From contig JAUIMB010000011.1 in the NCBI GenBank assembly GCA_030432635.1, positions 54,124 through 118,123 of the forward strand: a DNA stretch of 64,000 bases, written 5' to 3'. The DNA comes from Bacteroidia bacterium (GTDB taxonomy: Bacteria; Bacteroidota; Bacteroidia; Flavobacteriales; Flavobacteriaceae). Below are positions 38,679 through 42,497 of the stretch, in pieces. Numbering within the stretch: the first letter of the stretch is position 1; each line of letters opens with the position of its first letter. Below the pieces are notes generated by a model. That model was given only the letters and a program-made list of their open reading frames with translations, was not told the DNA's origin and did not search any database. A program made the position numbers and the translations under genes.

Positions 38679-41600
38679 ATGATTCATTTCTTCGGAAACC
38701 AAAACAGCAAGGTTTTTGCTGTTCAAGCAACAAAAGAATTATCAACTGAAACCATTTCTAAACTGACATGGCTTTTTGGCAACCAACCTAAAATAGAACA
38801 AGCATCGATTGATGCTTTTTTTGTTGGTCCAAGAGCAGCCATGATCACGCCTTGGAGTACCAATGCTGTTGAAATAACACAAAACATGGGCATCTCTGGC
38901 ATCCTTAGAATTGAAGAATTTGAATCCGTTTCAGAAACATTCAAGGATTTCGATCCAATGCTCTCTGAAAAATTTAAGCGTTTAGACCAAGACATCTTTG
39001 CAATTGACATCAAACCTGAACCCATACTTAACATCGCAGATATATCAGCGTATAACGAAGAAGAAGGTTTGGCGCTTAGTGATGAAGAAGTAGATTATCT
39101 TAACGATGTTTCAAAACGTATTGGAAGGCCATTGACTGACTCTGAGGTTTTTGGATTTTCCCAAGTCAATTCCGAACATTGTCGACATAAAATTTTCAAT
39201 GGAACCTTTATCATTGATGGTGAAGAAAAGCCGACATCACTTTTTAAAATGATTAAGGAAACTTCAAAACAAAACCCTAACGATATTGTCTCAGCTTACA
39301 AAGACAATGTAGCATTTATAAAGGGTCCTATTGTAGAACAGTTTGCACCCAAACGTGCTGACGTTCCTGAATACTATGAAACCAAGGATTTTGAGTCTGT
39401 GATTTCCTTGAAAGCCGAAACACATAATTTTCCAACAACGGTAGAACCATTTAATGGTGCTGCCACAGGTTCTGGTGGAGAAATTAGAGATCGATTGGCA
39501 GGAGGAAAAGGCTCTATTCCATTGGCTGGAACTGCGGTATATATGACATCGTATTCAAGACTGGAATCCGACAGGCCTTGGGAACAAAAATTCGAAGCAC
39601 GTAAGTGGCTGTATCAAACTCCAATTGATATCTTAGTAAAAGCTTCCAATGGTGCATCAGATTTTGGAAATAAGTTTGGTCAACCACTTATTTGTGGTTC
39701 TGTATTGACTTTTGAGCACGATGAAACCCATGATGTCACTCTGAATTCTGTCGAAGGGTATCAACCTCGAAAACTTGGCTACGACAAAGTCATTATGCAA
39801 GCTGGTGGCATTGGCTACGGAAAAGCAGACCAAGCCATAAAAGACATACCAAAAACAGGTGACAAAGTGATTATTCTTGGAGGTGAAAACTATCGTATAG
39901 GAATGGGTGGAGCAGCAGTATCTTCGGCTGATACTGGTGAATTTTCAACTGGAATTGAATTAAATGCAGTACAACGGTCTAATCCTGAAATGCAAAAACG
40001 TGCTGCAAATGCAGTACGAGGTATGGTAGAGAGTGACGAGAATCCTATTGTTTCCATTCACGATCATGGTGCTGGTGGTCATCTAAATTGTTTGAGCGAA
40101 CTTGTTGAAGACACAGGTGGACAAATTGATTTGGATAAACTTCCCGTTGGTGATCCAACGCTATCAGACAAAGAGATTATTGGCAATGAATCCCAAGAGC
40201 GTATGGGACTTGTTATTGCTGAAGAACATCTGGACGCACTTCATAAAATTGCAGAAAGGGAACGCTCGCCTATTTATGATGTAGGCGAAGTCACAGGTGA
40301 TCACAGATTCACTTTTGAATCTAAAACCAATGGAAACAAACCCATGGACCTTGCCATGAGTGATATGTTTGGAAGTTCCCCAAAAACTATCATGACCGAT
40401 AAAACCATTGATAGAAAATATGAAGCGATCACCTATCACACTGACGCAATCTATGATTACTTGGATCAAGTCTTACAACTTGAGGCTGTAGCTTGTAAAG
40501 ACTGGCTAACTAACAAAGTAGATAGGTGTGTTGGTGGAAAAGTCGCCAAACAGCAATGCGTCGGAACATTACAATTACCATTAAATAATGTTGGTGTAAT
40601 GGCTTTGGATTTTAATGGCAAGGAAGGCATTGCAACATCTATTGGCCACGCTCCTATTTCTGGTTTGATAAATCCTAAAGCAGGAAGCAGAAACAGTATC
40701 ACAGAAGCTTTGACGAATATCATTTGGGCACCTCTCAAAGATGGTTTGCAATCGGTTTCTTTATCTGCCAATTGGATGTGGCCATGTAAAAACGAAGGTG
40801 AAGATGCAAGGTTATACCAAGCTGTTCAGGCCATTTCTGAGTTTGCCATCGATTTAGGGATTAATGTGCCTACAGGTAAGGACTCCTTATCCATGAAACA
40901 GAAGTATCCTGAAGGTGATGTCATTTCACCTGGTACTGTTATTATTTCTGCAGCTGCGAATTGTAATGATATTGCAAACGTTATTGAACCTGTATTTCAA
41001 AAAAATGCTGGATCAATATACTACATCAATATTTCTCAAGATGCGTTCAAGCTTGGAGGCAGCTCGTTCGCTCAAATTTTGAACAAAATAGGGAATGATG
41101 TTCCAAGCGTTCAAAGTGCAAACTATACAAAAACCGTTTTCAACACTATTCAAGACCTGATCAAATCTGGAAAAATAGTTGCAGGACATGATGTGGCTTC
41201 TGGTGGTTTGATTACTACATTATTAGAACTTTGCTTTGCTGAAAATGAACTTGGGGCAGCTTTGGATATTAGTGAACTCAAAGAAACGGATTCCTTAAAA
41301 GTGCTCTTTGCTGAAAATCCAGGAATCGTTTTTCAATCAAACGATGATTCTGTGGAACAAGTGCTCACTGAGGCCAATATTGAATTCTTCAATATTGGAA
41401 AAGTGACACAGTCAGACGTATTAAGTATCATTAATCATGATGAAGTCTTCACCATGACTGTCTCTCGATTGAGAGATGTGTGGTATCGAACCTCTTTCCT
41501 ACTCGATCAAAAACAAACGAGTAATGGCTTAGCTCAAGATCGTTTTGAAAACTATAAAAATCAGCCTTTACAGTTTAAATTTCCAAAGCATTTTACAGGT

Positions 41601-42497
41601 AAATTAGCCAATGTCATTCAGAGCGAACGCGAAGAATCTGAGATTGCCACGTCGCAAGCTCCTCGCAATGACAGTTCAATGTCAGGTCGAGCGCAGTCAA
41701 GACCTCTTGACAACCTCTCGACTGCGCTCGAGGAGACAAGAGTAAGACCTAAAGCAGCCATCCTACGTGAAAAAGGAAGCAACTCTGAACGCGAAATGGC
41801 AAATGCCATGTACCTTGCTGGTTTTGATGTCAAAGACGTCCATATGACCGATTTGATTTCTGGTCGTGAGACCTTGGAAGACATTCAGTTTTTAGGTGCG
41901 GTTGGTGGATTTTCGAACTCTGATGTGTTAGGCTCTGCAAAAGGTTGGGCTGGTGCCATTAAATACAACGAGAATGCAAATAAAGCCATCAAGAAATTCT
42001 TCGAAAGAAGCGACACCTTATCAGTTGGAATCTGTAATGGCTGTCAGCTCTGGATGGAATTGGATCTAATCAATCCTGATCACGAGACGCATGGAAAAAT
42101 GGTCCATAATGATTCACATAAACATGAGAGCGCTTTTACTTCAGTGACCATTCAGGAGAATCGCTCTGTGATGTTGTCTTCACTTGCAGGAAGCACGTTA
42201 GGCGTTTGGATATCACATGGTGAAGGGAAATTTGATCTTCCATATGATGAGAGCAGCTATGACATCGTTGCCAAGTATGGCTATGCCGAATATCCATCAA
42301 ACCCTAATGGTTCAGATTATAATACTGCCATGATGTGTGATGCTTCCGGTAGGCATTTAGTGACGATGCCACATATAGAACGTTCAACATTTCAGTGGAA
42401 TTGGGCCAATTACCCTAAAGGAAGAAAAGATGATGTATCACCTTGGCTTGAAGCTTTTGTGAATGCTCGTAAATGGATAGAAAAAACAACTAATTAA
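38679..42497 (+). CDS. purL: Phosphoribosylformylglycinamidine synthase (large fused form)
   Basis: NSEHCRHKIFN, KAETHNFPT, IHDHGAGG, GICNGCQ and SHGEG motifs; TAAATTTG promoter at 38649-38656. Confidence 0.97.
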   Translation: MIHFFGNQNSKVFAVQATKELSTETISKLTWLFGNQPKIEQASIDAFFVGPRAAMITPWSTNAVEITQNMGISGILRIEEFESVSETFKDFDPMLSEKFKRLDQDIFAIDIKPEPILNIADISAYNEEEGLALSDEEVDYLNDVSKRIGRPLTDSEVFGFSQVNSEHCRHKIFNGTFIIDGEEKPTSLFKMIKETSKQNPNDIVSAYKDNVAFIKGPIVEQFAPKRADVPEYYETKDFESVISLKAETHNFPTTVEPFNGAATGSGGEIRDRLAGGKGSIPLAGTAVYMTSYSRLESDRPWEQKFEARKWLYQTPIDILVKASNGASDFGNKFGQPLICGSVLTFEHDETHDVTLNSVEGYQPRKLGYDKVIMQAGGIGYGKADQAIKDIPKTGDKVIILGGENYRIGMGGAAVSSADTGEFSTGIELNAVQRSNPEMQKRAANAVRGMVESDENPIVSIHDHGAGGHLNCLSELVEDTGGQIDLDKLPVGDPTLSDKEIIGNESQERMGLVIAEEHLDALHKIAERERSPIYDVGEVTGDHRFTFESKTNGNKPMDLAMSDMFGSSPKTIMTDKTIDRKYEAITYHTDAIYDYLDQVLQLEAVACKDWLTNKVDRCVGGKVAKQQCVGTLQLPLNNVGVMALDFNGKEGIATSIGHAPISGLINPKAGSRNSITEALTNIIWAPLKDGLQSVSLSANWMWPCKNEGEDARLYQAVQAISEFAIDLGINVPTGKDSLSMKQKYPEGDVISPGTVIISAAANCNDIANVIEPVFQKNAGSIYYINISQDAFKLGGSSFAQILNKIGNDVPSVQSANYTKTVFNTIQDLIKSGKIVAGHDVASGGLITTLLELCFAENELGAALDISELKETDSLKVLFAENPGIVFQSNDDSVEQVLTEANIEFFNIGKVTQSDVLSIINHDEVFTMTVSRLRDVWYRTSFLLDQKQTSNGLAQDRFENYKNQPLQFKFPKHFTGKLANVIQSEREESEIATSQAPRNDSSMSGRAQSRPLDNLSTALEETRVRPKAAILREKGSNSEREMANAMYLAGFDVKDVHMTDLISGRETLEDIQFLGAVGGFSNSDVLGSAKGWAGAIKYNENANKAIKKFFERSDTLSVGICNGCQLWMELDLINPDHETHGKMVHNDSHKHESAFTSVTIQENRSVMLSSLAGSTLGVWISHGEGKFDLPYDESSYDIVAKYGYAEYPSNPNGSDYNTAMMCDASGRHLVTMPHIERSTFQWNWANYPKGRKDDVSPWLEAFVNARKWIEKTTN
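39735..39758 (+). repeat. REP-like GTC-initial element inside purL
   Basis: GTCACTCTGAATTCTGTCGAAGGG, read in frame as VTLNSVEG. Confidence 0.55.
41613..41737. repeat. Cluster of four REP-like palindromic units (two inverted pairs) in frame within purL
   Basis: GTCATTCAGAGCGAACGCGAAGAATCT; revcomp of GTCATTGCGAGGAGCTTGCGACGTGGCAATCTC; GTCAGGTCGAGCGCAGTCAAGACCT; revcomp of GTCTCCTCGAGCGCAGTCGAGAGGT. Confidence 0.8.

Follow-up and report, generated by a model that had tools for sequence, protein, structure and literature searches.

The purL gene of this flavobacterial genome, which encodes a large single-chain FGAM synthase, carries four short GTC-headed hairpin repeats, arranged as two inverted doublets (A and B), in frame at the hinge that leads into the glutaminase domain. 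We propose that these are gene-less doublets of a kind of repeat that elsewhere accompanies a small GIY-YIG gene, and that they add 38 residues to the PurL hinge as a tolerated passenger, a reading to which we assign a probability of roughly 0.8. A and B are two related families of short GTC-headed hairpin repeats. The part worth following is the recurrent occupation of this one hinge across genera.

In the window, by which we mean the whole stretch of 64,000 nucleotides analyzed, purL is an intact open reading frame on the forward strand (38679 to 42497; 1272 aa) whose product matches solved PurL/PFAS structures. The insert (41612 to 41738, forward strand) lies between the codons for HFTGK (41589 to 41603), the last conserved residues before the hinge in an alignment of 43 PurL fragments, and those for RPKAAILREKG (41745 to 41777), identified by alignment and structure match as the first conserved strand of the glutaminase domain. 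Doublet A (41612 to 41673) is composed of the forward unit A1 (41612 to 41642; TGTCATTC...GAATCTGAG), which has copies with 93 to 96% identity elsewhere in the genome, and its inverted partner A2 on the minus strand (41643 to 41673), the reverse complement of which starts with TGTCATTGCGAGG. A 6-nt junction, GTTCAA (41674 to 41679), leads to doublet B (41680 to 41738). Here, the forward unit B1 (41680 to 41705) reads TGTCAGG, then the core TCGAGCGCAGTCAAGA with one mismatch to the family core, then CCT, and its inverted partner B2 on the minus strand (41713 to 41738) reads, in reverse complement, TGTCTCC, the exact core and GGT. The two B units are separated by a 7-nt loop (41706 to 41712), and the loop region is identical in all B alleles of the PurL hinge. 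The four units are 26 to 31 nt long, and all of them have the TGTC head at the outer end of their doublet.

A GC-rich cassette of four GTC-initial units in two inverted pairs, read without stops inside purL, had been described at this place in a first-pass annotation made from the letters alone. We confirmed its location and make-up and corrected its length, which is 127 bp and not the 125 bp given there. The insert has a GC content of 53.5%, compared with 39.6% in the remainder of purL and 36.7% in the genome as a whole, and it reads in frame as ...HFTGKLANVIQSEREESEIATSQAPRNDSSMSGRAQSRPLDNLSTALEETRVRPKAAILREKG within the intact 1272-residue frame. The strong mRNA hairpins also expected in that annotation are predicted for doublet B (-28.5 kcal/mol, z = -3.47, with none of 200 shuffles folding better) but not for doublet A, whose palindrome is weak (-15.2 kcal/mol, z = -0.69); single A or B units were unremarkable in RNA folding. 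Neither pattern appeared in 100 shuffles of the window. The genome is a 3.5-Mb draft of 40 contigs that is 99.9% complete, and the glutaminase domain was matched only once in it, so that the purL gene with the insert is the working copy.

The hinge comparison drew on 38 PurL genes from the genus plus five outgroup genera. The usual hinge of the genus has 10 residues of the form KLPxIDxSKP, its marker residues being 75 nt (25 codons) apart, whereas the hinge in this genome has 48 residues and 189 nt, a gain of 114 nt or 38 codons. This bears out the statement of the first-pass annotation that the linker is much shorter in related PurL proteins. When the solved structures were considered, both flanks aligned and no alignment among the flavobacterial, Salmonella and human PurL proteins ran across the insert. 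The FGAM-synthetase part of human PFAS (9n9w) runs to about residue 1024, and its glutaminase part picks up again at residue 1061; the RPKAAILREKG region aligns to this protein from residue 1061 and to Salmonella PurL chains from about residue 1046. Since the structures align on both sides of the insert and not across it, the insert sits in a variable linker before the first strand of the glutaminase domain. An AlphaFold2 model of the C-terminal 931 residues, based on a 20-sequence alignment of the genus, had a mean pLDDT of 47.5 and was uninformative on the hinge.

We did not recover a clean empty site; removal of doublet A (62 nt, not a multiple of three) breaks the frame. Nor was a clean target duplication found; the direct repeat CAATGTCA is spaced by 68 nt, which again is not a multiple of three. 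The flanking codons, too, differ between the hinges of carriers and empty hinges. The insert-bearing frame is a natural allele, and all carrier frames in other species are likewise open.

Units of both families recur in the genome and in its relatives, mostly between genes and at a modest copy number of about 5 to 20 per family. The 16-nt B core, TCGAGCGCAGTCGAGA, has 12 exact copies and 6 copies with one mismatch in the 3.5-Mb genome, 18 in total, against a chance expectation of about 0.08 by simple arithmetic. The segment is neither present in all relatives nor composed of units that fail to recur, the two points on which the first-pass annotation had made its interpretation depend. Among the B copies, the positions that flank the core covary in pairs (GG..CC, CC..GG, TC..GA), as in a short stem. 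Several B copies form intergenic inverted doublets, both in this genome and in relatives, and the loop of the relatives' intergenic doublets is AT-rich and 8 to 10 nt long; the short loop of the purL type had no copy outside purL in the genomes searched. The genome has about five further sites with A1-like units, two of them doublets built like element A. A generic scan for TGTCA plus a hairpin returned mostly noise. On direct reading, the B core is free of stops in all six frames, so that copies that keep the frame would be translated.

Besides purL, single units lie deep within the long open frames of seven other genes with clear Pfam identities. These encode diphosphomevalonate decarboxylase, LeuRS, MetH, MetRS, RNase R, an alpha-2-macroglobulin (with two units) and a fused MeaB-methylmalonyl-CoA mutase. 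Seven of the 16 B loci (about 44%) are intragenic. The comparison of unit-bearing genes other than purL with their orthologues covered LeuRS and MetRS, and against five relatives both contained hypervariable, unit-derived insertions in the same loops in several species.

Our results support a small GIY-YIG gene, and not RAYT, as the partner of the A and B units. The first-pass annotation had tied GTC/CGTC-tagged REPs to RAYT-type transposases and had named a GIY-YIG gene as the alternative to be sought. The alternative was found, bracketed by B units. The tie to RAYT did not hold: the survey of the CGTC-tagged REP superfamily, including its intragenic members, reports no dedicated transposase (Di Nocera, De Gregorio and Rocco 2013, BMC Genomics 14:522, PMC3733652), and no Y1_Tnp domain was found in this 99.9%-complete genome by a search that detected it in control genomes. 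L106 (contig C5:115485-115724) is the cognate gene of family B; one B unit precedes its start codon (ATG) by 6 nt, and a second, inverted B unit follows the gene. In this genome L106 is frameshifted in an A-run, so family B may be immobile here. B-type units lie on one side or on both in at least 10 of the 14 close homologues of L106 in the genus, and other GIY-YIG clades carry other cognate units. A second GIY-YIG gene, L107 (C5:119729-119950), is bracketed by GTCATTCCTGCGTAGGCAGGAATC units, which are close to the Neisseria NTS, and in the genome G023 an A1-type unit precedes a GIY-YIG gene set among several gene-less doublets. The GIY-YIG proteins match Pfam PF01541; their only PDB matches are the UPF0213 proteins 1zg2 and 1ywl, at an E value of about 1e-3, and NCBIfam gives nothing above cut-off.

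In this reading, the full-length element is a small cassette, a GIY-YIG nuclease gene of about 80 to 105 residues with one unit of an inverted pair at either side, and the doublets in purL are the ends of such a cassette minus the gene. The GIY-YIG enzyme may move or maintain the A and B units. The hinge peptide is probably made and harmless. Most likely, the insert has no function of its own and is a passenger that the protein tolerates; it would persist because extra sequence is accepted at this hinge, where other species have many different inserts.

The PurL hinge is a hotspot for inserts of several kinds. It holds a B doublet only in G004, G023 and G046, an A-type doublet only in G048, and a single B-like unit in G015, with degenerate ones in G044 and G049. 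G009 and G053 have an unrelated insert of 42 to 54 nt that is not a dispersed repeat in their own genomes, and G054 has a palindrome together with seven 15-nt tandem repeats. In other genera, a B doublet was found in G253, G165, Flavivirga amylovorans and two Flavobacteriaceae metagenome bins, and an A-type doublet in G094, G109, G251, Formosa maritima, Algibacter onchidii and bins assigned to Lacinutrix, Winogradskyella and Flavobacteriaceae; a Flaviramulus bin has what appears to be a decayed A allele. Of the genomes seen, only this one combined A and B. The right half that A2 forms here also occurs in the PurL hinges of G048, G094, Formosa, Lacinutrix and Algibacter, and the A-type alleles of G048, G109, G251 and Formosa start with CGTCATT. 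Overall, A or B elements occupy the same hinge in at least 10 other flavobacterial genera. About 13% of the genus carry the hinge insert, and when one genome per genus was sampled, an A or B hinge was found in 5 of 250 genera (about 2%). The copy in G023 has 9 uncompensated changes, and its peptide is altered.

We then considered how similar the shared alleles are. The 59-nt B doublets are 85 to 98% identical among carriers, including between genera. In at least six genera the doublet is found at one and the same codon position, with 93 to 98% identity. Identity reaches 98.3% in each of three pairs, namely this genome (G000) with G253, G004 with G253, and G046 with G165. In the next 600 nt downstream, fourfold sites are only 30 to 54% identical between these carriers, that is, they are saturated. 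The B doublets fall into two subtypes (G000/G004/G253 versus G046/G165) that cut across genera and do not follow species. In a PurL tree built without the hinge, the four B carriers of the genus fall in three clades, and the AU test rejects a topology that holds the B carriers together (p = 6e-5). A windowed comparison showed that the flanks of each carrier resemble those of its own sister species to within 18 to 40 nt of the hinge, with a weak hint of a shared tract downstream of the hinge in G046. Immediately around the insert, the carriers share KLxD..L before it and R or RV, then RP or KP, after it, in contrast to the usual form of the hinge. The remaining members of the genus of G253 have an ordinary hinge or another insert.

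The near-identity of the B doublets, the saturation of the fourfold sites and the failure of the carriers to form one clade together suggest lateral or site-specific spread. Vertical descent with repeated precise loss was rejected, since deletion of the doublet would not regenerate the conserved KLPxIDxSKP. Three options remain for the shared alleles: a very short hinge cassette may have been replaced laterally, a mobile doublet may have inserted site-specifically, or an old allele may have been maintained at the level of its sequence. Decay of the copies in G023 and Flaviramulus speaks against a general constraint on the hinge allele, and the near-identity of the B doublet between genera counts against a long-resident neutral passenger. 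As a route by which the hinge alleles may have become common to several genera, we tentatively consider, at somewhat under even odds, that the doublets are alleles which have passed from species to species, and across genera, into a single specific site, either by homing-like or site-specific insertion tied to hairpin nucleases or by recombination tracts shorter than about 130 nt.

These comparisons also bear on the inference, made from the single sequence, that selfish repeats accumulated successively in a tolerant linker. That selfish palindromic repeats gathered in such a linker is supported by the variety of the inserts and by the dispersed family. Their successive arrival fits the A-only and B-only alleles seen elsewhere, as does recombination between two alleles. 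The repeats do lie in the hinge, yet their local accumulation alone is insufficient as an account, because hinge alleles are common to several genera.

Two other biological explanations were weighed against the passenger reading. If the units were classical REP/BIME elements, mobilized by a RAYT (Y1) transposase like those of Enterobacteria and Pseudomonas, they would have the same doublet, BIME-like form; Y1_Tnp is present in 10 of the 39 genomes of the genus, and the hinge palindrome of G054 belongs to a RAYT-type REP family, different from A and B, that flanks the Y1 transposase gene of that genome. However, Y1_Tnp is absent not only from this genome but also from G015, G023 and G046, all of which carry B units, the heads are TGTC or CGTC and not GTAG, and the A and B units flank GIY-YIG genes and not Y1 genes. 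For this genome the involvement of RAYT is largely refuted, and we regard it as very improbable. Somewhat less remote, although still improbable, is a selected functional module, in which an RNA or DNA hairpin would regulate purL, or the peptide would tune interdomain coupling, under purifying selection. The strength of the B hairpin and the conservation of the B doublet between genera whose fourfold sites are saturated speak for such a module. Against it stand its scarcity in the genus and among the sampled genera, the decay of the G023 copy without compensation and the resemblance of the Flaviramulus hinge to a decayed A allele, as well as the unrelated inserts in the same hinge, the presence of units in at least seven other genes, and sequence subtypes that do not track species.

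An assembly artefact, or a chance GC-rich palindrome within a coding region, has nothing specific in its favor beyond the draft state of the 40-contig genome. Independently assembled genomes of many species contain the same alleles, the reading frame is preserved and the units belong to dispersed families, all of which make this explanation scarcely credible.

We treat the A and B units and their GIY-YIG genes as a variant class that may work like the Ssn system, in which GIY-YIG site-specific ssDNA nucleases (SsnA) are associated with NTS/SRM hairpin repeats (Chenal et al. 2025, Nat Commun 16:2388, PMC11893778). For that system, ssDNA cleavage and an effect on transformation, and only these, were demonstrated (PMC11893778). 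As in the Ssn layout, a small single-domain GIY-YIG gene is bracketed by inverted 20- to 50-nt hairpin repeats with further copies scattered over the genome, and this arrangement was seen for both genes here, for at least 10 of the 14 close homologues in the genus (units on one side or both) and in G023. Similarly, the units start with (C/T)GTCA, those of L107 read GTCATTCC..GGAATC and are NTS-like, and the L106 protein has Y at positions 5, 7 and 17 and E at position 65, near the Y6, Y17 and E64 that were mutated in the published work (PMC11893778). Unlike in the Ssn system, the B core TCGAGCGCAGTCGAGA is a different hairpin, each family has about 5 to 20 copies and not hundreds, and about 44% of the B loci are intragenic, versus 2% reported for NTS in N. 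meningitidis (PMC11893778). The SRM motif HGTCWYN(0-2)YYVSBRHN(0-5)WNVSBRGN(0-2)RNCYNB had no exact match in the genome, versus 3 to 9 in shuffles, and the purL units A1, A2 and B2 match it only with 3 substitutions. Because the published motif finds no match, the units are considered an Ssn-like variant class and not proven members. Nucleases of this class are not known to carry out transposition.

The units also resemble the CGTC-tagged REPs, which have been reported in Bacteroidetes and which occur within genes as singles, dimers and clusters encoding 20 to 82 aa, tRNA synthetase genes included (PMC3733652). Both are short tagged palindromes, often inverted dimers, that lie mostly downstream of genes, and the units here are likewise multicopy and mainly intergenic and form inverted dimers, with a high intragenic share. 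CGTC REPs are stem-loops of 20 to 40 bp with a CGTC end; the units here are 26 to 31 nt long and have a TGTC head in this genome, and homologous A-type hinge alleles of other genera have CGTC. The main text of that survey does not name purL, nor does the survey describe a single element that recurs at the same site in different genera (PMC3733652). With REPIN/RAYT systems (Bertels and Rainey 2011, PMC3116915; Nunvar et al. 2010, PMC2817692), the elements have in common the gene-less inverted doublets and a single-copy nuclease gene flanked by the same units; they differ in that the enzyme is of the GIY-YIG and not of the HUH/Y1 type, the GTAG head is missing and this genome has no RAYT.

In purL, a dispersed palindromic repeat that is missing from the orthologues lies inside an unbroken open reading frame, as is characteristic of an insertion of the type of the Rickettsia palindromic elements (RPE); the same was seen for LeuRS and MetRS. 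The RPE palindromes, described by Ogata and colleagues (2000, Science 290:347) and by Claverie and Ogata (2003), reportedly lie in frame within housekeeping genes and are translated as tolerated extra surface peptides, and copies at shared sites have reportedly been described as vertically inherited. The likeness lies in selfish palindromes in frame within housekeeping genes; unlike RPE, the units here are shorter, and they belong to another phylum and lifestyle, that of a free-living marine flavobacterium.

Since in-frame REP/RPE-type insertions and Ssn-type repeat systems have both been published, the finding is known in kind. It extends the RPE-type phenomenon to free-living marine Flavobacteriaceae and ties it to GIY-YIG hairpin repeats instead of RAYT REPs. 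As a rule for annotation, length variation in the PurL hinge and in the LeuRS and MetRS loops of the family is to be read as repeat-derived. Moreover, the states of the hinge, which may be empty, A, B, A plus B, single unit or decayed, provide a natural series for the study of repeat movement, nuclease action and linker tolerance. If targeted or lateral spread across genera is true, it would represent a new behavior for this class of repeats.

The GTC-headed hairpin units that form the inverted doublets A (A1/A2) and B (B1/B2) in the PurL hinge, the linker between the FGAM-synthetase and glutaminase domains, were also found in other coding sequences. Seven genes of G000, the genome that holds the window, carry single A1- or B-type units in frame (L138 to L144; contigs C30, C37, C40, C20, C22 and C3). 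The hosts are diphosphomevalonate decarboxylase, LeuRS, MetH, MetRS, RNase R, an alpha-2-macroglobulin, which carries a pair of them, and a fusion of MeaB with methylmalonyl-CoA mutase; the peptides usually encoded by the units are SSAVE(T/K), LSTALE, PRAQSS and EILRFALNDN. As seen in the genus relatives, unit-derived insertions of up to approximately 40 residues differ by species in at least two loops of LeuRS (L139 versus L150 to L154) and in one loop of MetRS (L141 versus L145 to L149). In the LeuRS of the relative G046, an A1-like unit adjoins a B-like unit, the same arrangement as in purL of G000.

In addition, purL of G048 (L155, C55:10300-12400) harbors a second in-frame A1-type unit (NVIESDSEES...), together with more extra sequence, at a site that precedes the hinge by approximately 640 codons and corresponds to ...LTFEHDETHD... 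in G000. On the minus strand of the window, an 88-residue ORF starting with ATG (41618-41884) overlaps the purL insert; it is most likely spurious, existing only because the palindromic units are free of stops on both strands.

Two small GIY-YIG genes of G000 lie between units. The first (L106:1-521, contig C5:115300-115820) has a B unit on each side. Its frame terminates, reading from the ATG, with ...KKIKKMERKKEICFS, and the next frame resumes with KKWSAKKK...NATHSNYNPNS, which matches the intact 106-residue orthologue of G044; the gene appears to be frameshifted within a run of A's. The copy in G014 is likewise shortened at the same region. The frameshift could mark the gene as a pseudogene, or it could stem from slippage or from a sequencing error in the homopolymer. 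The second gene (L107:1-551, C5:119600-120150) encodes an intact protein of 104 residues and is flanked on both sides by inverted GTCATTCCTGCGTAGGCAGGAATC units, a type with five copies in the genome that closely resembles NTS, the Neisseria hairpin repeat paired with Ssn GIY-YIG nucleases. The upstream unit gives this gene a false N-terminal extension (MSFLRRQES...).

In G054, a different palindrome, GACAAGTCGCGACTTGTC, flanks a Y1 transposase-like ORF (L157, C51:19300-20600), and two copies lie in frame within the ORF itself. The PurL hinge of this genome (L092) is filled by seven 15-nt tandem repeats (AHTD/ARTD...), followed by a GACAAGTCGCGACTTGTC palindrome.

In G023 (L156, C4:179900-181000), at least three gene-less doublets, each composed of an A1-type unit and a different inverted unit, form an array that flanks a GIY-YIG gene on either side, a compact example of a full cassette beside its gene-less derivatives. 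Moreover, a B-like unit is nested between the arms of an A-type doublet in G000 (C20:225150-225243). This nesting, together with doublet A directly adjoining doublet B in purL, suggests that the units insert into or beside existing units.
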